Below are positions 7,931-24,279 of a stretch of DNA of 24,467 nucleotides, one piece after another. Under the pieces are notes generated by a model. The model worked only from the letters and a program-made list of their open reading frames with translations. It searched no databases and was not told the origin of the DNA. The position numbers and the translations under genes were made by a program. Position 1 is the stretch's first letter, and each line of letters begins with the position of its first letter. The stretch is from Anaerohalosphaeraceae bacterium (GTDB lineage Bacteria > Planctomycetota > Phycisphaerae > Sedimentisphaerales > Anaerohalosphaeraceae). The DNA is taken from positions 1 through 24,467 of the forward strand of contig JBNRMN010000087.1 of NCBI GenBank assembly GCA_050309605.1, written 5' to 3'.

Positions 7931-7987
7931 AAAGCAAATCCGCCTTTAATTCGAATCACTGAAAAAGCAACTCGGATTTTCAATCGT

Positions 7988-8024
7988 GTCCCGCTCCCAA
8001 GCGGCATGCCGAATGGGAACGGAC
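7988..8024 (-). other. Intergenic RNA stem-loop (mRNA stabiliser or bidirectional terminator)
   Basis: Minus strand GTCCGTTCCCA-TT-CGG-CATG-CCG-CT-TGGGAGCGGGAC forms an imperfect stem including a G.U pair; T7 run at 8028-8034 on the plus strand. Confidence 0.55.
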
Positions 8025-8072
8025 GCATTTTTTTATCCGATTGAGTTAAGAGTCGCATTCTCACCATTACCA

Positions 8073-11000
8073 TTATTGTACCCGGAGGTTTCCTCGGCTG
8101 GTCACATTGGCGCCGCTCGGCATCTTTGACGAAACCGTATTGATCACATTTCCGACAAACGCGGCCGACGCGGTCGTATCCATGTCCAGGAATAATCGAC
8201 CGGACGGAGTCGTCCCCAGGTAATCGCGCAGATTGCCGCCAAGATTGTGAAGGACAGCCGTGTTCCTGACCCGGAACACGCCGCTCTGACCAACCGGGAA
8301 CAGGTGGAACAACTGAAGCCGTACATCGCCGCCGTTGATCATGGCGCTGTATTGATGCGTGCCCCAGCCGGCCGAACTGAACATTCGAAAGACCCCGTCC
8401 AGAGAAGCGCCCGTTTCGAGGTACCGCCCCACAGTGCCGTTGACGGTCACGATCTGAGAATTGATCATATCCAATCCGCCGCTGCCGATAGAATCGATCT
8501 GCAGCGCATTGGTGCATTGATCAACACCCATGCCCAGGCAATGACCGGACGGGCCAAACCCGCCTTCCTGTACAGTATGGACGCCCTTGGCGCCGCCAAA
8601 GACAAAGTTTTGATGCAGTACCTGGCCGGTCATATGGCCGAACAGGTACGGCGTTGCATCCCGCCACTGGATTTTATGGACATTGTCCGCTGTCCCGATT
8701 GGAATACTGTCGTAATACAAGCCTTGATGGGTATAAGCCGACGGATTGAGCTGGACGTTGTGAAGCTGCCCGTCTGTCGTGCCGTGACCGATATGAATTC
8801 CTGTTTTCAGTGCGGTCGCGAAAATGTAATCAACATAATGCCGATCACATCGATAGGTCGCCAGGTCAAGCAGTTGATACGGGATCGTTGCAGCAATGTT
8901 TATCACATAAATATCCGCACCGAGTCCGCGAATTAAGTAGGGGTAAGGAACAAATCCGTACATCCCGGTTTGCGGATCATCATCATTCTCATCATAGATC
9001 TGTTCGGGATAATGGAAATTCAGGCCCCGCACACCGGACTCGTGCTCAAGCTGGATAAAGGGCGTCCCGTCGGCATGGCTGCGGCCGGCATAGACATTGA
9101 GCAGACTGCCTTTTTCGCGGGTGCTGTGGGACGTATCGTAAATCCCTCTCAATTCAACGCCGGTCGGGACGACCAGCGTGCCGTTGAGGCGATAGTTGCC
9201 GCCCGGCACAAAGACGATCCCGCCGCCGTTGGCGCCCGCATCGGCCAGCGCCGCCTGAAAGGCGCCGGTATCATCGGTCACGCCGTCGGCCGCTGCATGA
9301 TAGGGGGCATCCGTTACGACATACAGGTCCGTCTTTGCGGATTGATAGGCCATTGTCGGTTTCTTGAAATCATATGCCGGCAGGGGATCGGCCGCAACAG
9401 GAGCAGAGTCAATGAGCACCGGATACGACGTGTTGTTAATAATCTGAGCACTGCCGGCAAATGTATTGCCCTGAAGGGTCGCCCCGCGGACCCCGCCGGA
9501 AACCCGGATGTGATGGGGCGACGCTGCGCCAAAGCGCGAATTGATAACCGATATATAGCCGCCGTTGAGATTCAAGGGACCCTGGAGGTCCGATGACATC
9601 ATCATCACCCGTGCGGCGCCGTCGCTGAGAATCGCCTCGACGGACGCCTGAATGCTGCATGTATGGAACAGAGTGGCCTGATCTGCGGAGGGCGACAGGT
9701 AAACGCCCCGTTCGGCGCTCTGGATATTAAATCGCGTAAACTGATAACCGGCATTGGCGCTGGCCTGGATATAAACGCCTGTTTGGCAATTGAGCAGATT
9801 AAACCTATACGATTGGCCGTTGGGATACTTGCCGTCATAACGCGACGGCCGTAACGCCAAACCGATGTTGTATCCTTCCACCGTCACATAACAGGAATAC
9901 GACCAGTCGATGCGGCGAACGATCAGACCGGTGCCGTGATCGTAAAGCCACCCTTCATGCTGCCCGGCGGTCGGGGCGCCGGCCAGGCCGGAACCGGCCC
10001 AGTAGGCCGGCGAAAAGTGAACCGTCTCGATGCGCCCGATGTCCGCCAGACAATCGTACTCAATGCCTGTCTTGAGCGGCGTCCCATAAACATTCCGAAC
10101 AAACGGACGGGCGGTTGTGCCTTCTCGAAAGGTGGTTACGCCGAAATAACTATTGACAAACGTTACGTCTTCAACCGTTCCGCCGTCCATCTGAATCGTA
10201 GGCGGATAAGGCTGAATATCGGTCGGCAGCTGTTCGGGATACCAAATCGTGATTCCCTTGATCCCGGCACTGCCGATCAGCCGGATAAACGCAGCGGCGT
10301 TCTCGTCTCCACGGCCGGCGTACGCCTGCAGAATCGTCCCGTCAATCGGACTGCCGGGCTGCGGCTGCGGCCAGTCGCCCCGAAGGGTCACTTGAGCCGG
10401 AATGGTCAATGTGCCGCTGACTTTATACTGGCCTGCCGGCAAAAACAGCGTTCCGCCGCCCAGATTATCGATTGAGATCAGGGCCGTCTGAAGCGCGTCG
10501 GTCACATCGGTCTGACCGTCTGCAACAATGCCGAAATCCCCGGCGTCATACGGCGTTACGATGATGTCATCGGTCGGATAAATCGTCTCGACAACCCGCC
10601 AGGTGGTCATAATCCCCCCAAGCCAGTTAGACGCAAGAACAGCAAAATCGCGATAGTTCACCAGACACCACGGATCAAAATTGGCCGGACTGTCGCAGTC
10701 GGAAACCAACCAGTCGGAAGCCAGCATCGCCAGATCGCCGATGTCCACGCCTCCGTCTCTATTGATGTCCCCGTCCACCGGCTCGAACGCCTGAATGGTT
10801 GTTTTGCCGTGATGCGTTGCGTTATAATCATAGAGAACTCGACCGGCGCCGCCATAGGCGACAATTTTTCCGGCTGAAACATAATTGCCCACCTCATTCG
10901 TTCGGTCGCCATTGATCACAATATATCCCGATTCAACATTGAGAATCGAAGCGCCTTTGATCGAATTGACACCATCCATTCTGTTCAGATTCAGAACGCC

Positions 11001-12482
11001 GCCGTCTCTGACATTCACGTAGCCGGTACCGCCATTCCACCCCAGCCCGAACTGCTGTGAGACATTGACCGTACCGCCATCGATATCCAGAATGCCGATT
11101 GAAGGAGAAGAAAATCCAATCCACATATGACCGCTGATATTGACAACGCCTCCGCCCTCAACGATCATCCGATTACTTGTTCCGCTATTGTATCCGATAC
11201 TCGACCAGGACGCCGTTGCAGTCAGACATCCTCCGTTTTGAACGCGAATCGTACTGTTGGCGTTTTGAACCAGTTGGTTGAAAATGTGGGAACCGGTGAC
11301 CCGACTCTCTGCCCGATTGGAATTGGTAAAACGGCAATTGAAGTTCCCGTCCGGACGTTTTGGATTGGTGCCCGTCCAATGGCTGGCGGTTGCCCAGTTA
11401 CCCGGCGATCCTGTTTTATTCCAAATGATATCCGTCGTTGTAGCCGACCATGTGGTGGCACTGGCGGGAGCCGATTCGTCGGTCTGAATGCCGAAAGGAT
11501 CCCGCAGGGTGACCGTATAGATATAGGTAGTCTCAGCCTGCAGGCCGGTCGCCGTAAAGACAGGGTCGGACTGCCAGCCGCTTGTCAGGCCACCGGGATT
11601 ACCGGAAAGCTCCTTGAAAAGATATTGCACCGGCCCATTGACAGACCAACCGACGGTTGCGGTCATGGTAATCGTATTGGCTCCGATGGCAACCGGCGGC
11701 AAAGAAAACGTCGCCGGATTCGGACTGGGCGGCGTCGGATCGACCGCCAAGGCAGTGATTGTCGTCTTGCCGGGATTTCTGTCGTCATAGTCATAAATCA
11801 AGACCCCAAGACCGCCATAAGCAACGATTTTTGTTCCTTCCCACGCACTGATCGCACCGGCGCCGTCTCCATGCATTAGAATCGTTCCCTCCCGTACGTC
11901 GATGAGCATATCACCGCCCATCGTCAGCGTGCCCGCACGGATATCCACCACCCCTCCGCCATCCACCGTGAGCAGACCAAAGCCGTCATCTAGACCCATC
12001 TGCAGATTACCGGTATGGATTATCACCGTGCCGCCGTCCACAATCAGATGCGATGGCACACCGTTCGCTTCGGTCAAGGCCCTGCGTCCGACAAACAGAC
12101 GGTGGGCGGTATTCAGCGTTCCGCCGGCTTCGACAATCAGGGTCGCCGGCCGGTTGTAGCCCACCGCCGACCAGCTTCCGACGGCGTGTGTCGTCAATGT
12201 GCCGCCGTTTACAATTCTTAAAAAGGTTCCGGTTTGTGTACCGTTATCGCCCATGGCGAGCATGCCGACCCCCACTGCCGTCTCCACGATACACTCGGCG
12301 GCGCCGTCCACATTGAACTGGGCCTTATCCGCCAAATCCGGCAAGCCATTGGTCCAGTGGGCCGCGTCGCTCCAGCTGGCCGCAGCCGGGTAACTCGCGG
12401 CAGGTGACCACACGGTATCGGCAGCCGCAAAGGCCCCGATCACAAGCACAAGCGCCGGTATGAAACGTGAAAAACGTGGCAT
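8073..12482 (-). CDS. Large secreted putative polysaccharide-degrading enzyme: beta-solenoid domain, Fn3, second beta-solenoid domain, dockerin-like pair, two tandem pectate-lyase-3-like beta-helices (GH55/GH87-like fold)
   Basis: Start moved to ATG 12482 (MPRFSRF...; AGAGGA RBS at 12494-12489; signal peptide ending AFAAA). Fn3-like DPTPPSPNP...GLQAETTYIYTV. Dockerin-like GDINRDGGVDIGDLAMLASDWL and VNYRDFAVLASNWL. Beta-helix cap motifs DFGIVADGQTDVTDALQTAL...GGGTLFLPAGQY and ADGVTDDTGAFQAAL...GGGIVFVPGGNY. Confidence 0.85.
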   Translation of the reverse strand: MPRFSRFIPALVLVIGAFAAADTVWSPAASYPAAASWSDAAHWTNGLPDLADKAQFNVDGAAECIVETAVGVGMLAMGDNGTQTGTFLRIVNGGTLTTHAVGSWSAVGYNRPATLIVEAGGTLNTAHRLFVGRRALTEANGVPSHLIVDGGTVIIHTGNLQMGLDDGFGLLTVDGGGVVDIRAGTLTMGGDMLIDVREGTILMHGDGAGAISAWEGTKIVAYGGLGVLIYDYDDRNPGKTTITALAVDPTPPSPNPATFSLPPVAIGANTITMTATVGWSVNGPVQYLFKELSGNPGGLTSGWQSDPVFTATGLQAETTYIYTVTLRDPFGIQTDESAPASATTWSATTTDIIWNKTGSPGNWATASHWTGTNPKRPDGNFNCRFTNSNRAESRVTGSHIFNQLVQNANSTIRVQNGGCLTATASWSSIGYNSGTSNRMIVEGGGVVNISGHMWIGFSSPSIGILDIDGGTVNVSQQFGLGWNGGTGYVNVRDGGVLNLNRMDGVNSIKGASILNVESGYIVINGDRTNEVGNYVSAGKIVAYGGAGRVLYDYNATHHGKTTIQAFEPVDGDINRDGGVDIGDLAMLASDWLVSDCDSPANFDPWCLVNYRDFAVLASNWLGGIMTTWRVVETIYPTDDIIVTPYDAGDFGIVADGQTDVTDALQTALISIDNLGGGTLFLPAGQYKVSGTLTIPAQVTLRGDWPQPQPGSPIDGTILQAYAGRGDENAAAFIRLIGSAGIKGITIWYPEQLPTDIQPYPPTIQMDGGTVEDVTFVNSYFGVTTFREGTTARPFVRNVYGTPLKTGIEYDCLADIGRIETVHFSPAYWAGSGLAGAPTAGQHEGWLYDHGTGLIVRRIDWSYSCYVTVEGYNIGLALRPSRYDGKYPNGQSYRFNLLNCQTGVYIQASANAGYQFTRFNIQSAERGVYLSPSADQATLFHTCSIQASVEAILSDGAARVMMMSSDLQGPLNLNGGYISVINSRFGAASPHHIRVSGGVRGATLQGNTFAGSAQIINNTSYPVLIDSAPVAADPLPAYDFKKPTMAYQSAKTDLYVVTDAPYHAAADGVTDDTGAFQAALADAGANGGGIVFVPGGNYRLNGTLVVPTGVELRGIYDTSHSTREKGSLLNVYAGRSHADGTPFIQLEHESGVRGLNFHYPEQIYDENDDDPQTGMYGFVPYPYLIRGLGADIYVINIAATIPYQLLDLATYRCDRHYVDYIFATALKTGIHIGHGTTDGQLHNVQLNPSAYTHQGLYYDSIPIGTADNVHKIQWRDATPYLFGHMTGQVLHQNFVFGGAKGVHTVQEGGFGPSGHCLGMGVDQCTNALQIDSIGSGGLDMINSQIVTVNGTVGRYLETGASLDGVFRMFSSAGWGTHQYSAMINGGDVRLQLFHLFPVGQSGVFRVRNTAVLHNLGGNLRDYLGTTPSGRLFLDMDTTASAAFVGNVINTVSSKMPSGANVTSRGNLRVQ

Positions 12483-12559
12483 CGCAAATCCTCTGTCTCT
12501 GATTGTTTCGTTTAATGTCAGTCGCTGCTGCAATGATCAAGTAATCAGATATTATTCAA

Positions 12560-12610: not shown

Positions 12611-13411
12611 TTATCGTGTTTTCTTCTTTCTGAGCAGCCCCGCAGCCCCCAGGCCCAGCAGAGCCAGCGTCGTCGGCTCAGGAACCACAACGGTCGTTAA
12701 GTCTAAAGCAGAGTCATATGTCGCTTCTACATCGCCGAGAATACCATTGCCGGCGATTAATCCGTTGGCAGCATACGTTTCTATCACGCCAACAAAATTT
12801 CCCGGCAGGGTAACTATGCCAGTTCCCATGATGTTCAAAAGCGAGTTCTGCTTAATCGAGGTCTCTCCATCGCCATGGATATTTGACAGGGCCAAAAGAC
12901 CACCGGAATAGACATTCACAAATCCATCTCCGCCGTTCCAGCCAAGCCCAAACATCTGGGCAACAGTAACGGTACCATAAATATCCACTGTACCCGCGGC
13001 ACCGGGATTGAAGCCAATCCACGCATGGTTACCAAAATTGAACGTGCCGCCGGACTCAACGATCAGGTTGGCGACATTATTCCACCCAATAGAGGACCAA
13101 CCATCGGTGCGGGTGTTAAGGATCCCGCCGTCCAACACGCGGATGACACCACCCGGGCCGCCGTCGCCTTGAACCAATTGCCCCGCATCAAAGGTTCCCG
13201 CTACCTGGGCCTCTGCGGCATCAGTAACATTAAACACGGATTTACTATCCCCATCGGTAACCGGGACTCCATTGGTCCAGTTGGCCGCATCTCCCCAGTC
13301 GCCCACATCCGGCGGATAGATACCATTGGCCGCGGGGTTCCACACGGTGGCGGCGTTTGATACACAAACCAAGCTGACAACCATTAACAACACAACTAAT
13401 TTTCTCATCAT
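12611..13411 (-). CDS. PEP-CTERM sorting-domain surface protein carrying one copy of the repeated beta-solenoid domain
   Basis: Start moved to ATG 13411 (or 13408), GGAGG RBS at 13420-13416; signal peptide MMRKLVVLLMVVSLVCVSNA; C-terminus VPEPTTLALLGLGAAGLLRKKKTR (PEP at 12682-12674, TM helix, basic tail). Confidence 0.92.
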   Translation of the reverse strand: MMRKLVVLLMVVSLVCVSNAATVWNPAANGIYPPDVGDWGDAANWTNGVPVTDGDSKSVFNVTDAAEAQVAGTFDAGQLVQGDGGPGGVIRVLDGGILNTRTDGWSSIGWNNVANLIVESGGTFNFGNHAWIGFNPGAAGTVDIYGTVTVAQMFGLGWNGGDGFVNVYSGGLLALSNIHGDGETSIKQNSLLNIMGTGIVTLPGNFVGVIETYAANGLIAGNGILGDVEATYDSALDLTTVVVPEPTTLALLGLGAAGLLRKKKTR

Positions 13412-13450
13412 TCTGCCTCCAAAAATAAAAGGTACTTGCAACAAATCGCC

Positions 13451-13473
13451 TGCCGTTCCACAGTGAAACGGCA
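13451..13473 (-). other. Small stem-loop in the 5' UTR of the PEP-CTERM gene
   Basis: Minus strand TGCCGTT-T-CA-CTG-TG-G-AACGGCA: 10-bp stem with one U.G pair, 40 nt before the start codon. Confidence 0.55.
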
Positions 13474-13532
13474 ATCGCGTCCTGCCGCATCTTTCGATTG
13501 ACACATTCATCATACGTTCCACATCCCCATCT

Positions 13533-13566
13533 CGGACACCCCGGACGCTGCCGCCCGGAGTGTCCG
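13533..13566 (-). other. Strong intergenic stem-loop
   Basis: Minus strand CGGACACTCCGGGCG-GCAG-CGTCCGGGGTGTCCG: 15-bp stem with two G.U pairs (C/A mismatches on the plus strand) and no U tract on the minus strand. Confidence 0.7.
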
Positions 13567-13596
13567 TTTTGAGGTCAATAAACGACTCCCGACCCC

Positions 13597-15186
13597 TTAC
13601 GGCAGGGGGACAGGCGCCGTTAAACTGTAGTCCGTCAGCCATTGAGAAGCGATCCTTGCAAAATCATCCAGATTCACTTTACAATCAAGCGCCCCCGGGA
13701 TATCGCCCGGATAATCAGCGCCCCGGCCGATGGCCCGTGCCGCCTGACAGGGGTTGTCCGCACAATCAAGCTGGACTGACGCAGAATTGGACACATTCAG
13801 CCCATCGTCCACCGTTACAGTCACGGTAAACGGTCCAGAGTGATAATCCACCGTCACGGTCGGATTGGGATCGGTGTTGCTGGGCGTAAAGACGATATTC
13901 GGATCATCAAGATTCGTCGTCCATTCATAAGCCACCATGGTAGGTTCGCCCTGGACCAGCTCCGTGGCCAATTGAATCGGCACACCTTTCCACGTAATCG
14001 TCGGCGGCGTGGTAATGTTCACCAACGGCGGCAATATATTTGTGACATCGAATTTATATACGTCACCTTTGACGACAACGAAATTGGGATCGGTTTCATA
14101 GTCAACAATTGCCGGATCGCCGTAAAGATACGAATCGACCTTCCAGTAATACGTTGTGGGAGGGTCTCCAATAACCGGGGCATTGACCATGACCGTCGTT
14201 GTATTTTCGCCGGCAACGACCACTGGGGTGAAATCAGCATAACTGGAAAAATTAGGATCATTCTCATCTTCTATCCATGTCGGATCGGTTCCAAACCAAA
14301 CGTCCACCCAAACCGAGTCGCCCGGCTCTGCCGGCTCCAGGTTGGTCCAGGCCAACGCCACATCAACGGCTAAAATCGTCTGGTTGTACGCCGGATAAGG
14401 ATCCAGAGCAGACATCGCGGTAATCGTTGTCCTTCCGGGGTTGGTCACGTTATAGTCATAGACCAATGTTCCGGCACCGCCAAAGGCCAGTATTTTTCCG
14501 GCCGCTGCATAGTTTTCAACAGCCGTGACCCGATCGCCGCCGATAATCACCGTCCCAAATCGTATATCAAGGAACGATCCATCCCAGATTGAGCTGGTGT
14601 TATCCCACTGATTCAAATTCAGAACGCCCTCATTGACATACATATGGGCGACGCCGTTTTGTGAACCGTTGTACCAACCCAGTCCGAAATTTTGGCCAAC
14701 GTTAATGGTGCCGCCATTTATAAAAATCTCGCCGACTCCGGTATTTTGCATGCCGTTCCACATATGACCCCCGGAGTTCAAGACGCCTCCGGTCTCTACG
14801 ATCAACGTAGCGGGCCTGTTATACCCGACAGACATCCATTGGCCGACACCGGTCGTAATGCTGCCGCCATCCATAATACGCAGCACGTTGTTTTGCTCCG
14901 CGGCCCCTCCATCACCCATTACCAGATGATGAACACCCTGTGCACCCGTCACAATACACTCGGCGGCCCCGGCCACATTAAACACGGCCTTGGTATCCAA
15001 CGGCGGCTGCTCGGTCCCGAAGCCCGGAAGCCCGTTGGTCCAGTTGGCTGCAATGTTCCAATTTGATACGCCGTCCACGATTGCATTTGGGTCGGGATTT
15101 CCCGCCGGGTTCCACACCGTTGTTGCAGCGGCAAACCCTATCGTCCACAAAACGACGATTAAACATACTATTTTTTTACATCTCAT
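13597..15186 (-). CDS. Secreted protein: beta-solenoid domain, Fn3/Ig-like, PKD-like, single C-terminal dockerin-like motif (paralog B)
   Basis: Start moved to ATG 15186 (MRCKK...), GGAGG RBS at 15199-15195; signal peptide; DVWFGTDP...TYYWKVD; YEWT...TVTVTVDDG; C-terminal GDIPGALDCKVNLDDFARIASQWL. Confidence 0.85.
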   Translation of the reverse strand: MRCKKIVCLIVVLWTIGFAAATTVWNPAGNPDPNAIVDGVSNWNIAANWTNGLPGFGTEQPPLDTKAVFNVAGAAECIVTGAQGVHHLVMGDGGAAEQNNVLRIMDGGSITTGVGQWMSVGYNRPATLIVETGGVLNSGGHMWNGMQNTGVGEIFINGGTINVGQNFGLGWYNGSQNGVAHMYVNEGVLNLNQWDNTSSIWDGSFLDIRFGTVIIGGDRVTAVENYAAAGKILAFGGAGTLVYDYNVTNPGRTTITAMSALDPYPAYNQTILAVDVALAWTNLEPAEPGDSVWVDVWFGTDPTWIEDENDPNFSSYADFTPVVVAGENTTTVMVNAPVIGDPPTTYYWKVDSYLYGDPAIVDYETDPNFVVVKGDVYKFDVTNILPPLVNITTPPTITWKGVPIQLATELVQGEPTMVAYEWTTNLDDPNIVFTPSNTDPNPTVTVDYHSGPFTVTVTVDDGLNVSNSASVQLDCADNPCQAARAIGRGADYPGDIPGALDCKVNLDDFARIASQWLTDYSLTAPVPLP

Positions 15187-15234
15187 CTTTATGGCCTCCA
15201 CAAAAAATGTTTTCTTTATTATAGTCCGGGTCGT

Positions 15235-16791
15235 TTACGGGATAACCGTCGGCTCTGTGAGTGCATAGTCTGCCAGCCAATCGACAACGAGCGCCGCAAG
15301 GTCTGAAATATCCACCACACAATCATCCCCTGCGATATTCATTGGATAGTCGTCCGCAATACCGGCGACAACCGCCGCGGCACACGGATCAGCGGCCACA
15401 TGCAGCACCATTGAATCGGAATCCATTTCAGGATTGGCCGCGTCCCAAACCGTCGCCGTCAAGGTAATGGGGCCGGCAGCATAATCAACCTCGACAACCG
15501 GATCTTTGGCCGTGGTGCTCGGGAAGAATACGGCGTTCGGATCGCTGGCCGTCCATTCAATAAAGACCTCAGAGGGACCGCTTTTGGTTATCGTCGCCTG
15601 CAGTTGAACCGGTTCATTGATCCAGGTAACGGTATCGGGCGTGTCAATGACGACGGTCGGCGGCGTATCATCGTTAACGTCAAACCTGAACACATCGCCT
15701 TCGATCACGGGGGTTTCAGGGTCATCATAGTCAACCACTGCCGGATCGCCGTAAATGTAAGAATCCACCTGCCAGTAATAGGTGGTGGGCCGCATATCGT
15801 CGAAAACCGGCGCATTGACCGTTACGGTCGTGACATCCTGTCCAGCCGCAACCTCTTGCGAGTACGCCGGGGACAGCTTGTTCGGATCGGTTCCGAACCA
15901 GACATCGACCCACACCGGGTTGCCGGGCTCGTTGGGATCCAAATTCGTCCACACCAAATCGACAGGAGCGATTTCGCCCGACGGAACCGGTAACACGTCT
16001 CTGTAACCCGGCCAGGGATCCATCGGATGGGTCGCTCTGACAAGGGTCCTGGTTGCCCCTTCAAAAGGTTCTCTTGTGACCGTCAATTGGCCGGCGCCGC
16101 CAAAACCAACAAGAGTTCCAGCGTTGATACGACTCCAAAGCCGGCTGGGGGCGGTCGCATAATTGTTATCAATCACAAGGGTACCGAACCTGACATCGCA
16201 AAGAGAACCTGGCTCGTCGAAATCATCCGGATAGTAACGCATCCGGAAAATACCATCATTAATCGTTAAAAAGCCATTACCTCCTGCCTTTCGCCCTAAA
16301 TCGACAGCGTCAGCAACACGGACATATCCTCCATTGATAACAAGTCTTCCAATACCGCCGTTTTCCATTCCAAACCACAGGTGGGATTCCAAAAGAACCT
16401 GTCCGCCTTCTTCGACGATCATCGTACCTCCATCATTGTTGTACCCCAAACCGCTCCAGCCGCCACCGGTTTTACGAATGACGCCGCCGTCCATCACGCG
16501 AATAATGTTCGTAAAAGCGCCGCCGTCTCCTGTGACCAGGCTCTCCGAAAACGGCAGTGTGTCGGTTGTCACCTGACACTCCACGGCCGCACCGGCGGCA
16601 TTAAACACGGGCTTTTGGTCAACGTCTCCGGGGAGCCCGTTGGTCCAGTTGGCTGCAATAGTCCAGTTGGACACCCCGTCCACAATGTCGTTCGGGTCCG
16701 GATTCGCCGCCGGGTTCCACACCGTTGTTGCAGACGCCGGCCCGGCCGTCAACAAGACGGCTGCCAAGCATATTACAGTGATTCTTCTCAT
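15235..16791 (-). CDS. Secreted protein with the same architecture as 13597-15186 (paralog A)
   Basis: Start moved to ATG 16791 (MRRIT...), GGAGG RBS at 16804-16800; signal peptide ending PASA; collinear with paralog B along its full length; C-terminal NIAGDDCVVDISDLAALVVDWL. Confidence 0.85.
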   Translation of the reverse strand: MRRITVICLAAVLLTAGPASATTVWNPAANPDPNDIVDGVSNWTIAANWTNGLPGDVDQKPVFNAAGAAVECQVTTDTLPFSESLVTGDGGAFTNIIRVMDGGVIRKTGGGWSGLGYNNDGGTMIVEEGGQVLLESHLWFGMENGGIGRLVINGGYVRVADAVDLGRKAGGNGFLTINDGIFRMRYYPDDFDEPGSLCDVRFGTLVIDNNYATAPSRLWSRINAGTLVGFGGAGQLTVTREPFEGATRTLVRATHPMDPWPGYRDVLPVPSGEIAPVDLVWTNLDPNEPGNPVWVDVWFGTDPNKLSPAYSQEVAAGQDVTTVTVNAPVFDDMRPTTYYWQVDSYIYGDPAVVDYDDPETPVIEGDVFRFDVNDDTPPTVVIDTPDTVTWINEPVQLQATITKSGPSEVFIEWTASDPNAVFFPSTTAKDPVVEVDYAAGPITLTATVWDAANPEMDSDSMVLHVAADPCAAAVVAGIADDYPMNIAGDDCVVDISDLAALVVDWLADYALTEPTVIP

Positions 16792-16937
16792 TTTGACGAC
16801 CTCCACAAAAAGTTATTCATTTGATTGCGATGAAACACTTCACTCTATACGAAATAGGTAAAACATCCTTGTCGCCGCTAACCATCCCTGCGTACACACC
16901 CACACATCCATTCACACCGGCTTGCCATACAAACGGA

Positions 16938-17762
16938 CTACCGCATCCAGATCGGCCAGTCGTCATTGTCATTCGCAAGCGGATTGCCGATATTAAAGTC
17001 TTTGTGCCATTTTTGCCTCCAGAGTTCCGTCAGACGGATGGACGCGGCGGACCCATCGGCATAAACGCTGTTGACTGATTTGCCATGACGAACCAGCGTA
17101 AACGCACGCATGTACCCCTGACCATCATAGACGCCGAACTCCTCTGAATCCGGCCGATCCGTATGGTGCGGCCACGCATCCACGGACCGTGAATCCAAAT
17201 AGAGGGGCACTCCGGAAGGCTGCCGGATATGACTCATTTTGCCCCAAAATGAATCCACAGGCAACGGGGCGCCAAACGTTCCAACGCTGGGGTCCATGAT
17301 CCAGGAATTGGGAGCATAGCTGCACCAAAACCATTGCCCGGCGTCCGGATGCGCTGTGTCGATGATCTCCCTGCCCCAGCATTCATCCCGTCGTTCAGGA
17401 AAATATCGCCCATCGATTACCCAATCGACAGAGGGGCTAAAGTCTTGTTTTCGTTGAGCTTTCGCGCAGATGAGTATATCGGGTTGGTCGATGTAATACG
17501 GCCGCAAGGTCAGGAACCACCACTGGCCGCGAGGGTCATTGCGGCCGTCATTGTTCCAATCGGCATCCGGGAAGCGGTCATCATTCGCAGAGGTATAAAA
17601 GGAAAGAATCAAATTCCATTGTCGCAAATTCGATGTACAAACAATAGATTTGGCCAGCTCGTGTGCTTTTTGAAGCGACGGTGCTATGATGGAAAGCAGC
17701 AGGGCAATAACAGCAATGACAACCAGCAGTTCAATCAGCGTGAACCCCTTTCGCCGTGGCAT
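16938..17762 (-). CDS. Prepilin-type N-terminal cleavage/methylation domain protein with H-X9-DG C-terminal motif (DUF1559-like)
   Basis: Start moved to ATG 17762 (or 17768), AAGGGA RBS; MPRRKG|FTLIELLVVIAVIALLLSIIAPSL class III signal; CxSNLRQ; H-GKSVNSVYA-DG at 17087-17052. Confidence 0.92.
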   Translation of the reverse strand: MPRRKGFTLIELLVVIAVIALLLSIIAPSLQKAHELAKSIVCTSNLRQWNLILSFYTSANDDRFPDADWNNDGRNDPRGQWWFLTLRPYYIDQPDILICAKAQRKQDFSPSVDWVIDGRYFPERRDECWGREIIDTAHPDAGQWFWCSYAPNSWIMDPSVGTFGAPLPVDSFWGKMSHIRQPSGVPLYLDSRSVDAWPHHTDRPDSEEFGVYDGQGYMRAFTLVRHGKSVNSVYADGSAASIRLTELWRQKWHKDFNIGNPLANDNDDWPIWMR

Positions 17763-17842
17763 CTTCATCCCTTTCAGAATAATACACACATAATTATGGC
17801 TGCTTACAGGGAGCATAAGTGTTGCCATTGCTCTAATCTGCC

Positions 17843-18145: not shown

Positions 18146-18175
18146 TTGACAAATAGAAACAAATTATGTTAATAT
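18146..18175 (+). promoter_or_regulatory. Sigma70-type promoter for the rightward operon
   Basis: TTGACA (18146-18151), 18-nt spacer, TGn-extended TAATAT (18170-18175). Flanked by the 11-bp inverted repeat AAATGTAAATT (18109-18119) / AATTTACATTT (18177-18187). Confidence 0.7.
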
Positions 18176-18232: not shown

Positions 18233-19249
18233 ATGATTACAGTGAAAAGTGCCGTCGCCCTCAATGAGCCGCTCTCGATCCAGCATTTAGCCCCACATTC
18301 CACAATGGACGATTTCGAGTCCATCGAATCGACCAGTGACGCGCGGTTTAAGGTGGGTTCATGCGGGGTCCACTCGATTTATCGGACAGGCGACAAAAAA
18401 GTAGAGTTTGTCTTTTTCTCAGGCCATATCCTGGCCTATGTCAAGTCGGCATTAGGCTATCCGGCCTATTATCCCATCCATCCGGTCGAAATGAAAACAC
18501 CGATGAAAGCCGTATTAATGGATCTTGATGGGACCAGTGTCAGAAGCGAAGAGTTTTGGGTGTGGATTATTCAAAGGACGGTGGCCTCGCTTCTCGATCA
18601 GCCGAATTTTGAGCTTTCTCAGGACGATTTGCCGTTTGTATCGGGCCATAGCGTGTCGGAACACCTCCAGTACTGCATTGACACATATTGTCCCGACAAA
18701 ACGGTCGAACAGGCCAGAACGTACTATTTCATGCACACCCGCCATGAAATGAACGAGATCATGAATGGCCGAGGAAGAACCGATGCATTTGTGCCTGCAC
18801 CGGGCCTGAAAGAGTTTTTGTATGCGTTAAAGGCCAGGAAGATTAAAATCGGACTGGTCACCTCAGGCTTGTACGAAAAAGCCTGGCCTGAAATTCTCTC
18901 GGCGTTCAAAACGCTGAACATGGCGGACCCGAAAGACTTTTATGATGCAATCATCACGGCTGGTTTCCCGCTTCGAAAAGGCTCAGCCGGCACATTGGGC
19001 GAGTTATCTCCAAAACCGCATCCCTGGCTCTATGCCGAGGTCGCTCGTGTCGGATTGGGGATTGAGCAAAACGAAAACGGGCATATGGTGGGTATTGAAG
19101 ACAGCAGCGCCGGGGTGTGTGCACTCAGGCTTGCTAATATTCCGGTCATTGGTATAACAGGGGGCAATATCGAGCAAAGCGGGACCAGAGGGCTGTGCCA
19201 TCATTATTGCAAAGACTTCGACCAGATTTTACGCATAATTGGGGATTAA
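18233..19249 (+). CDS. HAD-superfamily phosphatase (beta-phosphoglucomutase-like, subfamily IA) with an N-terminal extension
   Basis: Motif I DLDGT (18521-18535), motif II VTSG, motif III KPHP, motif IV IEDSxxG. Start uncertain (ATG 18233, GTG 18242 or ATG 18305). Confidence 0.88.
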   Translation: MITVKSAVALNEPLSIQHLAPHSTMDDFESIESTSDARFKVGSCGVHSIYRTGDKKVEFVFFSGHILAYVKSALGYPAYYPIHPVEMKTPMKAVLMDLDGTSVRSEEFWVWIIQRTVASLLDQPNFELSQDDLPFVSGHSVSEHLQYCIDTYCPDKTVEQARTYYFMHTRHEMNEIMNGRGRTDAFVPAPGLKEFLYALKARKIKIGLVTSGLYEKAWPEILSAFKTLNMADPKDFYDAIITAGFPLRKGSAGTLGELSPKPHPWLYAEVARVGLGIEQNENGHMVGIEDSSAGVCALRLANIPVIGITGGNIEQSGTRGLCHHYCKDFDQILRIIGD

Positions 19250-19251
19250 CG

Positions 19252-22218
19252 ATGGATATTATTGCAGAACAACTGAAGAGCCAGAGCGAAAAAAGTCGCA
19301 AAATAAACGCCTTTGAGATGGTCAAGAGAAAAGGCGTTAGAAAAACTAAAACGCAGTGTCATTTTATTTCAAACACCCACTGGGACCGGGAATGGCGTTT
19401 CTCTATGCAGCGGACCCGCCATATGCTGGTTTATATGATGGACATGCTGCTGGATATATTTGAAAAAGAGCCGGATTTCAAGTCGTTCCATCTGGACTCG
19501 CAGACCGTGCCGCTTCAGGACTACCTGGAGATTCGCCCGGAGAAAGAGGAAACCCTCAAACAGTTAATTGCGGGCAAAAAACTGCTGGTTGGCCCCTGGT
19601 TTTGTCTGCCGGATGAGTTTTCCGTAAGCGGCGAATCACTGATTCGCAATCTGCTGCTCGGCCATCGAATCGCCAAGGACATGGGCTATGTCAGCAAAAC
19701 GGGCTATTCGCCGTTTGGATGGGGCCAGATCTCTCAAATGCCGCAAATCTACAAGGGTTTTGGGATTGAGTTTGCCGCGTTTTATCGGGGAGTCAGCACC
19801 AAAGCCGCCCCCAATTCAGAATATGTCTGGCAAGGCGCCGACGGCACACAAATCGTTGCTTCGCGTCTGGCCATGCGCCCGCGTTATAATGTCTGGTATG
19901 TCATCCAGCGCCCTGTCTATTGGCAGCAGCAAGATGAGAACAACCGCGTTGTTCCCTGGTCATGCGGCGGCGGACCATTTATGTTTGTCGGCGACCGATA
20001 CAGGGAATTGGACGCCCAATACGCACGTCCGAAATATCGCTATGACGCCGCGGCGATACCGGCCAGAGCCAAACAGGCCATAGAAGAACAGGACGGTGAC
20101 TGGACTACCCCGCATCGCTTATGGTCCTGCGGCCATGACTCGTCCTGCCCGGACATTCGCGAAGTGCAGATGATCAAAGACTGCAATGAGGCCCTCAGGG
20201 GCGATGCGGATGTGTTCCACAGCACGTTTGAAGCGTTCCAGAAGCAAATCCTTGAACATGTTTCAGATGAGTTGCCTGTATTGCGGGGCGAAATGCGCTA
20301 TTACTCTGACTCCAAAGTCACCAGCCCCCTGTTTGGCTGGATCATTTCTGCACGGATGGATGTCAAAATCGACAACTTCAAAACCGAACGCGAACTGATG
20401 CAGTATGCCGAACCGCTGGCTGTTTATGCCGCCATGCTCGGAGCACCGTACCCGCAGGGATTCCTGGACAACGCTTATAACTGGCTGCTGCAGAACCACG
20501 GGCATGATTCAATCGGCGGATGCAGCCGTGCCATTGTGAGCGAGGACATGCTTTTCAGAACGCGGCAATGCCGGGAAATTTCGGCCTGTGTCGCCGAACG
20601 CGCGATCCTTGATATTGCCGGAACAATCGATTATACCGGGCATGAGAATGAGCCAATCGTCTTGTTTGTGTACAACCCCGCACCATTCAAACGGGATGAA
20701 ATTGTGTCGGTTAATCTGGGATTGCCGCGCGAAGCGGAATCCGAATCGTTTGAAATTGTTGATGACCGCGGACTAAAGGTCAGCGCTGAAACGCTGGGTT
20801 CTGAGCCGTCCTTCCAGATCGTCCAGTCTCCCAACGATACGGCCAATATGTTTCTGACCAAACAATATCGCGCGAACGTTGAGCTGAAAGACATTCCGCC
20901 GACCGGTTATAAACTCTTCTTTGTCAGGCCCGTTGACAAACACAATGCCGTTCCGGCCCGCTCTGACACGATGGTCACCGACATCAACACGATGGAAAAC
21001 GAACATCTGCGTGTCGCAATCCAGGGCAACGGCACGATGACCATTACCGATAAAAACACCGGCAGGGTTTTTGAACGGATGGGCTATTTCCGCGACACCG
21101 CAGAAGTCGGAGACCCCTGGCAGCATCGCGATGTTGAGGCCAAACAAGAGTTCACGACAATCAATGAAAAAGCAACGGTCAGCTTGGTTCGCGATGGCCG
21201 TCTGGAAGCGGCCTTCAGAGTATCGCTGGATTGGCCGTTGCCCCAGTGCCGCACGCCCGACGATAAAGCCCGAAGCAAATATATGAAAACAGTCCGGATC
21301 AACAGCACCATTACCCTGCGCAAAGGGCAAAAATGGGTTGATATTGTCACCGACGTGGAGAATACCGTCGAAGATCATTATTTACAGGTCGCGTTCCCAA
21401 GCGGCATTTCCGCCGACACGGTGTTTGCCCAGGGGCAATTCGATGTGCTTGAGCGTCCGGTTAAGCTGCCGTATTCGGAAGACTTCCGCGAACCTCCGCA
21501 ATCCGAGCAGCCGATGAATTCCTTTATCGATATTACCGATGGACACCACGGCCTTGCGATATTGAATGAAGGCATGAAGGCCTATGAGGCAACCGACCGG
21601 GACCAGCCGGAGCTGCGACTTACCCTGCTGCGCAGCTTTCCCCTGCGGATTTGCGTCACGCAGGAGATGACCGATTACAGCCGGATTGACAAGAGTTCGC
21701 AGTGCCTGGGCAAACACACATTCCATTACGCCGTGATGCCGCACAAAGGAAACTGGGAACAGGCCGCTCTGTGGAATGCCGCCGAGCAATTCAACCTGCC
21801 GCTGGTGATTGGCCAAACCGCTCCGACCCAAAACGGCACCGAACCGAGGCAAAAATCCTTCCTTGAGATTTCAGACGAACGGATTGCCGTCAGTGCGGTT
21901 AAACGCAGTGAAAACGGAACCGGTTGGGTGGTTCGACTCTTCAATCCCACCTCACGGCCTGTCAAAGCCAAACTGCGGCTTAACGGCGGTTATGCAAACG
22001 CCTTTCCTGTCGCCGGCCCCGTACAACGATTACAGAACGAAATGGCACTGTCGGGAACCAGCAAGCGGCCATGGAATGCCGCGCGAATCGTCAATCTGGA
22101 AGAAATTCCGGAAAAAGAGCTTGCCGTGGACAGCGCCGGCTGGTGCGTTTTTGAAATGGCTCCGAAAAAGATTCTGACCATTGAATTCAGAGATAAAAAC
22201 AACCGGTGCGACGAATGA
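19252..22218 (+). CDS. Cytoplasmic GH38-fold protein (alpha-mannosidase/MngB-like) with a non-canonical nucleophile position
   Basis: Start moved to ATG 19252 (GGGGA RBS, 2 nt after the HAD stop). Motifs THWDREW, LDSQT, GPWFCLPDEF..SGESLIRNLLLG, GHD, NHGHDSIGGCS, LTLLRS, SAVKRSE...VVRLFNP. No signal peptide. Confidence 0.9.
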   Translation: MDIIAEQLKSQSEKSRKINAFEMVKRKGVRKTKTQCHFISNTHWDREWRFSMQRTRHMLVYMMDMLLDIFEKEPDFKSFHLDSQTVPLQDYLEIRPEKEETLKQLIAGKKLLVGPWFCLPDEFSVSGESLIRNLLLGHRIAKDMGYVSKTGYSPFGWGQISQMPQIYKGFGIEFAAFYRGVSTKAAPNSEYVWQGADGTQIVASRLAMRPRYNVWYVIQRPVYWQQQDENNRVVPWSCGGGPFMFVGDRYRELDAQYARPKYRYDAAAIPARAKQAIEEQDGDWTTPHRLWSCGHDSSCPDIREVQMIKDCNEALRGDADVFHSTFEAFQKQILEHVSDELPVLRGEMRYYSDSKVTSPLFGWIISARMDVKIDNFKTERELMQYAEPLAVYAAMLGAPYPQGFLDNAYNWLLQNHGHDSIGGCSRAIVSEDMLFRTRQCREISACVAERAILDIAGTIDYTGHENEPIVLFVYNPAPFKRDEIVSVNLGLPREAESESFEIVDDRGLKVSAETLGSEPSFQIVQSPNDTANMFLTKQYRANVELKDIPPTGYKLFFVRPVDKHNAVPARSDTMVTDINTMENEHLRVAIQGNGTMTITDKNTGRVFERMGYFRDTAEVGDPWQHRDVEAKQEFTTINEKATVSLVRDGRLEAAFRVSLDWPLPQCRTPDDKARSKYMKTVRINSTITLRKGQKWVDIVTDVENTVEDHYLQVAFPSGISADTVFAQGQFDVLERPVKLPYSEDFREPPQSEQPMNSFIDITDGHHGLAILNEGMKAYEATDRDQPELRLTLLRSFPLRICVTQEMTDYSRIDKSSQCLGKHTFHYAVMPHKGNWEQAALWNAAEQFNLPLVIGQTAPTQNGTEPRQKSFLEISDERIAVSAVKRSENGTGWVVRLFNPTSRPVKAKLRLNGGYANAFPVAGPVQRLQNEMALSGTSKRPWNAARIVNLEEIPEKELAVDSAGWCVFEMAPKKILTIEFRDKNNRCDE

Positions 22219-22320: not shown

Positions 22321-24279
22321 TTGGACAATCTTTTGACCGCTGTTGACTATGTCTTTATCGCCGTTTATTTTGTTATTCTGATGGGAATTGCGGCATACCT
22401 TCAGAAAAGGGCATCCAGCAGTATCGAAGATTATTTCATCGGCGGCAGAAAGCTGCCGGGGTGGCTGCTCGGCATTTCAGGCTTTAGCCAGTTTGTCGAT
22501 ATTACGGGCACGGCGGTCATCATCTCGTTTCTTTATATGCTGGGACCGAAAGGGATGATGATTGAATTACGCGGCGGGATGGTGATCCATATGGCGGTGA
22601 TCTTGTTATGGGCCGGCAAATGGCATCGTCGAAGCGGGTGTATCACAGGCGCTGAATGGATGATTTTCCGATTCGGCAACGGCCCGGACGGCAAGGCGGC
22701 CAGAATTATTACAGCCGTGGCGATGCAGATCTTCACGATCGGTATGGTCATTTATCTGGCCAAGGGCGTGGGGATTTTCTTTTCCACATTTTTGCCTTTT
22801 AGTCCTCACACCTGTTCTTTTGTATTGATTCTCATTGCGTGCATCTATACCGCAACGTCAGGTTTTTACGGGGTGGTATTCAGCGATTTATTCCAGGGCT
22901 TGATTATTATTGCGGCGGTGTTTGTCGTATCCATCCTGGCCATCCAGAAAACATGGTTTTCGCCGGAATTCCCGGCTCTGGCCACTCAGGTTTCCGGCAT
23001 GGAAGACTGGGTCAGTGCCATTCCTCAATGGAAAGTACAAATGCCCGAAGGGTATGAAAATTATAACCTTCTGACTCTCATGGCCATGTTCTACCTGCTC
23101 AAAGCAATCATTAACGGCATGGGAGGCGGGGGGGAGCCTAAATATTTTGGCGCCCGCAACGACCGGGAATGCGGCACGCTGACGTTCATTTGGACCAGCC
23201 TGGTGGCGTTTCGCTGGCCCCTGATGATTGGGTGTGCGATTCTTGGCATTTATTTTGTCAACCAAAATATTCCGGACACCGCCTTGCTGGCCGACGCGGC
23301 GGCAATCGTCAAAGGGACGTTCACGGATATCGGCCATCCTCAGTGGGAAGCCACCATCTCCAGAATCATAACACATCCCTCCGATTATCCGCAATTGGTC
23401 GGCCAGCTCGAGACGCTCTTGGGGCCGACATGGTCGGATAAGCTGGTGTTGACGAGTTTTCACGGGACGATTAACCCTGAACGCATCCTGCCGGTTGTCG
23501 TTTTGAATGCGATTCCGGTCGGTCTGAAGGGGCTGCTTTTGATCGCACTGGTTTCAGCATGCTTGTCCACGTTTGATTCGAATGTCAACTGGGCGGTCGG
23601 CTTTATTACGCGCGATCTCTATCAGGGATACCTCAGGCCTCAGGCCGGCACCAAGGAACTCATCAAGATAAGCTGGATTGGCACATTTGCCATCGGCGCA
23701 ATCGGTTATATCGCCGCCTTTACAGTGGATAACATCAATGACATCTGGGGTTGGCTGATGATGGCCCTGGGCACGGGGTTCTTTGTGCCCAGTGCGATTA
23801 AGTTTTATTGGGCACGCTTTAACGGCTGGGGTTTTACCACAGGCATGGCGATGGGAATCGGAAGCGCGGTGTTGCAGCGAGCCGTCTGGCCGGGACTGTC
23901 GGAAATGTGGCAGTTTGTCCTGACCGGATCGTTGGGCCTGGTCGGTTCGGTTGCCGGAACATTGTTGACCAAACCGATGGATCAGGAAATCCTGAAAACC
24001 TTCTATGAGAAAACCAAACCCTTTGGGTTCTGGGGCCGTTTCAAAGAAGGTCTGGACCCGGAAACACGAAAAACCGTCAGTCGGGAGCATTTTTATGACA
24101 TTATTGCTCTGCCGTTTGTCTTAGCCTGGCACTATCTGATTCTGCTGCTGCCGGTACTGCTGGTCATTGGCAATTTCAAAGAACTGGCCGCAGGATGCGT
24201 CCTCCTTGTGGTTGCCATGGCCGCGATGTATCAATTTTGGTATAAAAAATTACCGAAAACTAACCTTTATGAGGCCTAA
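22321..24279 (+). CDS. Sodium:solute symporter (SSS family), probably a sugar/oligosaccharide importer
   Basis: TTG start with GAGGTG RBS (22310-22315); DYFIGGRKLPGWLLGIS; YTxxSGFYGVVFSDLFQ; PVGLKGLLLxALVSACLSTFDSxVN; DLYQ; many hydrophobic TM segments. Confidence 0.92.
   Translation: MDNLLTAVDYVFIAVYFVILMGIAAYLQKRASSSIEDYFIGGRKLPGWLLGISGFSQFVDITGTAVIISFLYMLGPKGMMIELRGGMVIHMAVILLWAGKWHRRSGCITGAEWMIFRFGNGPDGKAARIITAVAMQIFTIGMVIYLAKGVGIFFSTFLPFSPHTCSFVLILIACIYTATSGFYGVVFSDLFQGLIIIAAVFVVSILAIQKTWFSPEFPALATQVSGMEDWVSAIPQWKVQMPEGYENYNLLTLMAMFYLLKAIINGMGGGGEPKYFGARNDRECGTLTFIWTSLVAFRWPLMIGCAILGIYFVNQNIPDTALLADAAAIVKGTFTDIGHPQWEATISRIITHPSDYPQLVGQLETLLGPTWSDKLVLTSFHGTINPERILPVVVLNAIPVGLKGLLLIALVSACLSTFDSNVNWAVGFITRDLYQGYLRPQAGTKELIKISWIGTFAIGAIGYIAAFTVDNINDIWGWLMMALGTGFFVPSAIKFYWARFNGWGFTTGMAMGIGSAVLQRAVWPGLSEMWQFVLTGSLGLVGSVAGTLLTKPMDQEILKTFYEKTKPFGFWGRFKEGLDPETRKTVSREHFYDIIALPFVLAWHYLILLLPVLLVIGNFKELAAGCVLLVVAMAAMYQFWYKKLPKTNLYEA

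Follow-up and report, generated by a model that had tools for sequence, protein, structure and literature searches.

An Asp-less branch of the GH38 family, its HAD-IA partner and the chemistry they may share

How might a glycoside hydrolase family 38 (GH38) protein act when it lacks the residue that defines its family? The question is raised by a gene on contig JBNRMN010000087.1 of an Anaerohalosphaeraceae bacterium (GCA_050309605.1), of which we analysed positions 1 to 24,467 of the forward strand (24,467 nucleotides; the window). The gene, an intact open reading frame (ORF) at 19252..22218 on the + strand, encodes a GH38-fold protein of 988 amino acids with no signal peptide. By convention, all of GH38 counts as retaining and an Asp nucleophile is its defining residue; in this protein the nucleophile position holds Phe. 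Sequence, phylogeny and gene context support a different chemistry and a misleading annotation, and we tentatively favour phosphorolysis with inversion, in which inorganic phosphate would take the place of the lost Asp.

A phenylalanine at the nucleophile position

Although the ORF could also start at GTG 19195 or ATG 19318, we number from the ATG at 19252, which makes TTT at 19714..19716 (+) codon 155 and its product Phe155. A phmmer search against all PDB chains matched the bacterial GH38 structures 3lvt and 5kbp (E 1e-90) and 2wyh (E 6.5e-84), and the segment 'gyspFgwgqisqmpq' aligned without a gap to 'gyfpDtfgnmgqtpq' of all three. Asp204 of Drosophila Golgi mannosidase II, the nucleophile and Zn ligand there, is the counterpart of Asp125 in the S. 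pyogenes enzyme, SpGH38. For the latter enzyme, PMC2815779 names Asp125 as nucleophile and Zn ligand, His13, Asp15 and His351 as the other Zn ligands and Asp232 as acid/base, and describes Asp125 as kept ionised by Arg149 and Tyr192.

Mapped onto SpGH38 with the +22 offset of chain 2wyh_A, Phe155 falls at Asp125, whereas the rest of the catalytic set is retained. His43 and Asp45 of His43-Trp-Asp45 (19378..19386, +) correspond to the Zn ligands His13 and Asp15, and His418 of His418-Asp419 (20503..20508, +) to the Zn ligand His351, with Asp419 at Asp352. Asp296 (20137..20139, +; within Gly294-His-Asp296, 20131-20139) matches the general acid/base Asp232, and Arg179 (19786..19788, +) is the equivalent of Arg149, kept despite the lost Asp; further along, Phe127 maps to Trp157 and Tyr574 to Trp623. 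The spacing between the invariant flanks GY and Q..PQ is equal in Asp-less and canonical groups, so no gapped alternative brings back an Asp. The original prediction, made from the sequence of the window, had placed Phe at the GH38 nucleophile with the other Zn ligands and the likely acid/base kept, and all of its coordinates (Phe155, His43-Trp-Asp45, Gly294-His-Asp296 and His418-Asp419) proved exact.

The protein has the GH38 domain architecture of an N-terminal barrel, a helical bundle and C-terminal beta domains. Pfam matched PF01074 (GH38N, 1.7e-27), PF07748 (GH38C, 2.8e-24) and PF17677 (GH38C2, 2e-7), with a weak match to the mid domain. The AlphaFold2 (AF2) model scored 93.6 for predicted local distance difference test (pLDDT) and 0.94 for predicted template modelling (pTM), and the best Foldseek matches were the bacterial GH38s 5kbp/2wyi (TM 0.80-0.89, E about 1e-73 to 1e-76). 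With bacterial GH38s (SpGH38, 2wyh/2wyi; E. faecalis, 3lvt/5kbp) it shares the five-domain architecture, the HxD and HD Zn ligands, the acid/base Asp, the Arg149 equivalent and the GY...Q.PQ frame. Identity in the structural alignment is, however, merely 24-25%, and besides the change of Asp to Phe, the 'FGH' His at +4 is replaced by Gln and Tyr574 by Trp, the His after the acid/base is lost, and an insertion of ~67 residues with a conserved Arg is added.

The mannosylglycerate hydrolase MngB of E. coli likewise combines a GH38 fold, a cytoplasmic location and membership of a small-glycoside import module, but MngB-type enzymes carry the nucleophile Asp. MngB also works alongside a phosphotransferase system (PTS); the window protein is instead accompanied by a symporter and a HAD enzyme. 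The window protein scored 443.2 bits against the MngB equivalog model (NCBIfam NF007331), well short of its cut-off of 1138. Source labels for close relatives nonetheless include 'alpha-mannosidase' and 'mannosylglycerate hydrolase'. Both names are unsafe for these proteins, and the earlier warning that annotation as alpha-mannosidase would mislead is supported.

A conserved branch and a conserved partner

The substitution is not peculiar to this strain; a change unique to the strain, in an inactive protein, was what the original prediction had named as counting against itself. A word-indexed search that scored 8000 candidates gave 2652 relatives at E <= 1e-10. The best 120, at 56-93% identity, belong to Phycisphaerae and further Planctomycetota, to Bacteroidota, to Anaerolineales and to other groups. 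Together with the query, 120 of 121 carry Phe within a near-invariant 'KTGYSPF[GS]WGQISQMPQIY'; in the remaining protein, P0013, the site was not located by the pattern. The cultured Anaerohalosphaera lusitana has an orthologue that is 75% identical. Compared with a 93%-identical homologue, the ratio of non-synonymous to synonymous substitution rates (dN/dS) was 0.033/0.289 (0.11). The intact ORF, the conserved change and this ratio rule out a sequencing error or pseudogene, which the first look at the sequence had judged unlikely.

To sample more widely, we ran HMMER against 1.84 billion cluster representatives, which returned 10,075 proteins at E <= 0.001. The best 150 and the query made 151 alignment rows (P0057 entered twice), of which 8 shorter than 800 amino acids were dropped, leaving 143. 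The nucleophile column holds Asp in 56 of these full-length rows and lacks it in 87, where the residues are F (46), T (19), C (7), S (6), A (4), N (3), G (1) and R (1). In a FastTree phylogeny built without the motif and insertion columns and covering the 150 nearest representatives only, one branch (local support 82) separates all Asp-less sequences from the rest, and a single loss therefore suffices. Judged by these alignments, the Asp-less branch of the GH38 family is large, ancient and strongly conserved. The suggestion that 'PFxWG' might define a conserved clade holds in that the change does mark one, but the clade is much wider than the signature, with F, T, C, S, A or N at the position. 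The same variation rules out Phe itself as the functional novelty.

Apart from the nucleophile, the Asp-less group keeps the catalytic residues: His43 in 84 of 87 rows (the other 3 being gaps), Asp45 in 83, Asp296 in 85, His418 in 86 and Asp419 in 85. The column of the Arg149 equivalent is basic in 85 of 87 (R 65, K 16, H 4). A column scan for a gained acid (present in >= 70% of Asp-less and <= 30% of canonical rows) found none, and scanning class by class showed that basic residues were gained. Losses comprise the nucleophile, three canonical His (in the N-terminal 'HSH', in 'FGH' and after the acid/base) and two Tyr. Within the Phe-bearing F-clade, residues common to both other groups are altered ('DHRLRV' to 'DHYLQV', 'EYE' to 'AYE') and additional Arg and Trp residues are gained, which suggests that the F-clade substrate site has been remodelled.

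The main gain of the branch lies at a clade-specific insertion of ~67 residues (Ala207-Ala273; 19870..20070, +) that is not found in canonical GH38. Arg205, Arg209 and Arg211 stand at the start of this region and Asp254 inside it. Arg211 (19882..19884, +), part of an 'RxNF' motif, is near-invariant, its column holding R in 81, K in 5 and G in 1 of the 87 Asp-less representatives. It sits 5 residues past the strand 'QIVASRL', and SpGH38 Tyr192, which makes a hydrogen bond to the nucleophile, sits 4 residues past the matching strand '...RILGLLF'. By eye, 'R-x-N-F' stands for 'W-Y-(S/N)-N', whereas MAFFT puts the canonical Tyr opposite Trp236. Arg211 thus appears to line the vacated nucleophile site. 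Arg179 and Arg211 are candidate phosphate-site residues.

Directly upstream of the GH38-like gene is a gene for a 338-residue HAD-IA phosphotransferase (18233..19249, +). The junction (19241..19254, +) consists of a Shine-Dalgarno-like GGGGA run, the TAA at 19247-19249, two bases and the ATG at 19252, an arrangement that suggests translational coupling. Downstream follows a 652-residue sodium:solute symporter (Pfam SSF; 22321..24279, +), probably the importer of the substrate; among 72 genome loci, 13 have a symporter of this family after the GH38-like gene.

When we clustered the ORFs of these 72 genome loci, each holding a relative of the GH38-like protein, the HAD family was the only broadly shared neighbour (60 of 72). 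At least 1.1 kb of sequence was available upstream of 59 F-type genes (five further loci had none). In 56 of these 59, the HAD gene is the immediate upstream neighbour in the same orientation; L012, L038 and L040 depart from this, and in L040 it lies directly downstream. The paired loci come from Planctomycetota, Verrucomicrobiota and ruminant-gut Clostridia. The association extends beyond Phe: the HAD family lies upstream of T-variant (G076, L082) and C-variant (G101) GH38-like genes and divergently adjoins a 31%-identical F-variant (G045), and in five loci a divergent HAD protein of 451-464 amino acids with the hallmark motifs is encoded directly upstream of a second F subclade.

Two wider samples agree with this pattern. 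Among 80 metagenome loci, drawn with a 10-sequence T-variant alignment and so biased to that query and to the pattern THWDREW, the HAD family occurred in 16 of 44 Asp-less and 0 of 27 canonical loci (Fisher p 2e-4, the loci not being independent), with nine unclassifiable or mixed loci left out. In an even sample of 151 Planctomycetota genomes, the HAD was found in 5, all among the 6 with a GH38-like match at E <= 1e-100. In Clostridia the pair often has an Ams1-like canonical GH38 close by (11 loci); a GFO/IDH/MocA oxidoreductase is also near it in 11 loci, and an MFS_2 glycoside transporter in 7. Such a neighbourhood fits breakdown of an imported mannose-containing oligosaccharide or heteroside. 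No kinase and no PTS is conserved among the neighbours of the module, whose transporters are symporters (SSF, MFS_2). The second F subclade (917-929 amino acids) has the conserved operon FAD oxidoreductase - GHL10 - PGM/PMM (phosphoglucomutase/phosphomannomutase) - HAD - GH38-like - GH94 phosphorylase, its HAD being the form of 451-464 amino acids.

The HAD partner has a conserved N-terminal beta domain of ~88 residues, a C1 cap and HAD motifs I-IV: DLDGT (D97, D99), TSG (T210), KPHP (K261) and EDS (E289, D290). Pfam matched HAD_2 (E 4.7e-12) and Hydrolase. In an alignment of 31 HAD partners, 59-78% identical to that of the window, all four motifs are invariant and the cap motif 'VSGHSVSEHL' is conserved. 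The AF2 model (pLDDT 81) renders the N-terminal domain as a small beta sheet. The only PDB sequence matches, by phmmer and by profile, were two beta-phosphoglucomutases (beta-PGMs; E about 1e-3), the top Foldseek match was the E. coli beta-PGM homologue YcjU (4g9b), and protein atlas names are generic HAD only. By its motifs, the protein is a competent HAD-IA phosphotransferase in a family of its own, for which mutase and phosphatase activities are both possible. A predicted complex of the HAD with GH38-like residues 30-630 (without the C-terminal beta domains) gave interface (ipSAE) scores of 0.01 and 0.00, which we counted neither way. Among the longer HAD-containing proteins searched, which is weak evidence, no HAD-GH38 fusion was found. 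The single match was P0272 (965 amino acids), which is 66% identical to the HAD over 91% of its length and fused to a SASA (sialate O-acetylesterase-like) domain; this fusion may be real or a gene-calling artefact.

Proposed phosphorolysis and its rivals

The Asp-less branch probably works by a chemistry different from that of canonical GH38. The other catalytic residues are 95-100% kept in the 87 Asp-less sequences and purifying selection acts on the gene, which indicates an active enzyme without an enzyme nucleophile. No acid was gained, and two cations that appear to lie beside the vacated carboxylate site would fit an anionic co-substrate. With symporters rather than a PTS and no conserved kinase, we infer that phosphorolysis would be the simplest source of the sugar phosphate on which the HAD acts. 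The conserved HAD phosphotransferase also favours exogenous phosphate over assistance by a substrate N-acetyl group; the latter is not supported by the gene context, in which no deacetylase, N-acetylglucosamine or N-acetylmannosamine genes are conserved.

Our leading reading, held tentatively, is therefore an inverting phosphorylase, with phosphate in the vacated Zn/nucleophile site and the HAD processing the sugar phosphate. The HAD, the GH38-like protein and the SSF symporter would belong to a single cytoplasmic module that breaks down a small imported glycoside, an alpha-mannoside being the likeliest. Inorganic phosphate would replace the lost Asp, held by the open Zn position together with Arg179, which was retained, and Arg211, which was acquired. 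From the beta face, the phosphate would attack C1 as Asp296 protonated the leaving group, and this single-displacement, inverting phosphorolysis would give a beta-glycosyl 1-phosphate. The HAD-IA enzyme would then act on the product, most likely as a beta-phosphohexomutase yielding the 6-phosphate; failing that, it would be a phosphatase. All four elements (phosphate site, reaction, sugar and HAD activity) are proposals. We counted in favour of a phosphorylase that the operon of one subclade holds a GH94 phosphorylase and a PGM/PMM mutase.

Inverting glycoside phosphorylases, such as those of GH65, GH94 and GH130, use neither a nucleophile nor a base of their own and bind phosphate on the side of the sugar away from the leaving group; of these features, the missing nucleophile is shown here. 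A parallel exists in GH65, whose inverting alpha-glucoside phosphorylases (maltose, kojibiose), with PgmB/YcjU, likewise have no nucleophile or base residue and an adjoining HAD-IA gene. GH65, however, is an (alpha/alpha)6 barrel with no metal, whereas here a GH38 barrel carries a Zn site. The HAD partner also differs from that of GH65 in not being a beta-PGM equivalog and in its extra N-terminal domain, and phosphorolysis is here a proposal.

Several points weigh against this reading. The site residue in the window protein is a hydrophobic Phe, and Met occupies a column that holds H, R or K in 79 of 85 (93%) other Asp-less sequences and 38 of 42 of the F-clade. The placing of Arg211 and Arg179 at the site comes from alignment and barrel topology. 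The HAD partner, by its sequence, is not a beta-PGM equivalog: its best NCBIfam families are beta-PGM, but with 33.6 bits against 153.35 for TIGR02009 and 30.2 against 189.4 for TIGR01990, and sugar and glycolate phosphatase families score close behind. Foldseek, too, scores phosphatases (AlnB, CbbY, phosphoglycolate phosphatase) like beta-PGMs. The cap and core residues for the second phosphate in L. lactis beta-PGM are Arg49 and Ser116-Lys117-Asn118. In an HMMER alignment to 3nas that is too weak to decide the matter (E 0.005), the cap 'GiSR' pairs with 'GHSV' and 'SSSRN' with 'TSGLY', which puts Val where beta-PGM has its distal-phosphate Arg. In 28 of the 44 Asp-less metagenome loci no HAD was seen within the flanks fetched. 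Finally, the literature searched, which covered few subscription journals, held nothing relevant on an alpha-mannoside phosphorylase or a nucleophile-less GH38, nor on beta-mannose 1-phosphate or a beta-phosphomannomutase, so that the product has no biochemical precedent there.

A possible but more doubtful explanation is an inverting metal-dependent alpha-mannosidase, in which water, possibly Zn-bound, attacks C1 from the vacated site and the HAD serves an unrelated or later step, such as dephosphorylation of a substrate or product. Three protein ligands and a water make a normal catalytic Zn site, and GH47 and GH92 are Ca-dependent inverting alpha-mannosidases whose metal contacts mannose O2 and O3. 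The conserved Zn ligands and acid Asp296 are consistent with such an enzyme, as are the 28 metagenome loci without a visible HAD and the often small or polar site residue (T, S, C, A or N in 39 of 87), which leaves room for water. A mechanism switch within one family also has a precedent in GH97, which has retaining and inverting members and switched through loss or relocation of the nucleophile (PMC2670981). GH97, GH47 and GH92, however, have an identified carboxylate base for the water; here no carboxylate is newly conserved as a general base and the gained conserved residues are basic. Hydrolysis would also leave the tight coupling to the HAD across phyla without explanation.

Rather unlikely, in our view, is a retaining hydrolase that uses the 2-OH of its substrate (Zn-bound O2, which would be acidified) as nucleophile through a 1,2-anhydro (epoxide) intermediate, or else another substrate group such as an acetamido or carboxylate. 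In an alpha-mannoside, O2 is trans-diaxial to the leaving group. The GH38 Zn contacts O2 and O3 of the -1 sugar, as PMC2815779 describes for the swainsonine complex of SpGH38, and a 1,2-anhydrosugar intermediate without an enzyme nucleophile has been proposed for GH99 (PMC6001782). GH99, however, has a dedicated carboxylate base for O2, of which no newly conserved equivalent is found here, and such assistance accounts for neither the gained Arg nor the HAD partner.

An ordinary retaining alpha-mannosidase with a relocated nucleophile, either Asp254 or the acid at 247/248 in the insertion, is the case that the original prediction had named as refuting it; on the alignments it is unlikely. The Asp254 column is acidic throughout the 42 F-clade sequences sampled (D 41, E 1), and an acid at 247/248 (motif 'PF[HRK]xxD') is found in 37 of these 42 and in 70 of 85 other Asp-less sequences. 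But outside the F-clade the Asp254 column holds D in 17 and E in 8 of 85, and the 247/248 acid is missing in 20 of 127; the other catalytic residues are 95-100% kept and these candidates are not, and the tree needs a single loss. Least probable is a catalytically dead, sugar-binding GH38-fold protein (lectin-like, regulatory or a scaffolding subunit for the HAD): nucleophile loss does inactivate canonical GH38, as in the D204A substrate traps of Golgi mannosidase II (PDB titles 3czn, 3bud, 3bvu, 3cv5), but Zn ligands, acid/base and many active-site residues conserved at 95-100% over a deep clade, with dN/dS of 0.11, are not expected of a mere binding module.

Whichever mechanism applies, be it phosphorolysis, metal-bound water or substrate assistance, the branch would represent a new catalytic solution on a well-studied fold. 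Well over half of the nearest 143 GH38 representatives, from many uncultured anaerobic lineages and ruminant-gut Clostridia, lack the Asp, so thousands of entries named alpha-mannosidase or mannosylglycerate hydrolase are probably mis-annotated. Thanks to the HAD partner, the question can be put to a direct test in a system of two enzymes, with an orthologue at hand in a cultured species. The pair may also uncover a pathway of mannoside breakdown, so far unrecognised, in anoxic sediments and the guts of herbivores. It is conceivable, though we hold it tentatively, that a GH38 branch became an inverting phosphorylase by deletion of its nucleophile, phosphate serving as both fourth Zn ligand and nucleophile and beta-mannose 1-phosphate (or a related beta-hexose 1-phosphate) being released. 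If so, a co-evolving HAD 'beta-phosphomannomutase' would feed the product into glycolysis. The enzyme would then be both the first phosphorylase known to act on alpha-mannosides and the first glycoside phosphorylase assisted by a metal, and it would mirror in nature the chemical rescue of nucleophile mutants.

Surrounding genes and related loci

Upstream of the HAD gene, a sigma-70-like promoter match (TTGACA-18-TAATAT, 10/12, with a TG extension; 18146..18175, +) was found by consensus only; the region holds 10 matches of such quality against 7.6 expected from shuffles. The wider surroundings in the window comprise large secreted proteins (CotH/LamG, pectate-lyase-like, PEP-CTERM), pseudopilin-like N-methyl proteins, a sulfatase and a metallophosphoesterase. 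On the - strand, 3542-7930 encodes a 1462-residue protein with LamG/Laminin_G_3, lamin-tail, CHB_HEX_C/Fn3_assoc and CotH kinase domains (Pfam), and an array of ORFs follows at 8073-12533, 12611-13642, 13597-16806 and 16938-17828 (-). The array encodes a pectate-lyase-fold protein of 1486 residues and a PEP-CTERM protein, two further products that matched no Pfam family, and a pseudopilin-like N-methyl protein. In other Planctomycetota loci (L006, L022, L023 and L040), relatives of these proteins are again encoded upstream of the HAD-GH38 pair and on the strand opposite to it.

The operon of the second subclade lies on metagenome contigs L100 (714-11152), L104 and L108. Type IX secretion system (T9SS)-tailed NAGPA-type phosphodiester glycosidases occur near it, and also directly upstream in L095 and L107, which hints at breakdown of a phosphodiester-linked glycan. 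Genes for URO-D/MtaA-like proteins, identified by BLAST, stand beside Asp-less GH38 in five metagenome loci (L080:2142-3092, L081:5017-5967, L155:8861-11109, L102:12285-13655 and L088:5247-6377) and one genome locus (L038:10916-12055), and that search found none at canonical-Asp loci. In L018 and L021 the HAD-GH38 pair is immediately preceded by a phospholipase D (PLD)-like (PLDc_2) gene of 582 residues, and L020 has a related 528-residue gene two genes further upstream; this neighbour may hint at a substrate derived from phospholipid headgroups.

In G076 (C90:3629-6343), the match to the T-variant GH38-like gene contains one in-frame TGA. The ORF begins just past it (L160:3671), and the TGA is probably upstream of the true start. 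Contig C13 of G000 (L079:3587-6934 and 6964-10479, -) encodes two tandem divergent GH38-like paralogues of 1115 and 1171 amino acids, apparently secreted, with an extra N-terminal region of ~300 residues and the metal motif 'HQTHLDIGYT'. They have 'LTD(I/V)PG' for the usual nucleophile motif and adjoin a major facilitator superfamily (MFS) sugar porter and a pseudopilin-like gene.

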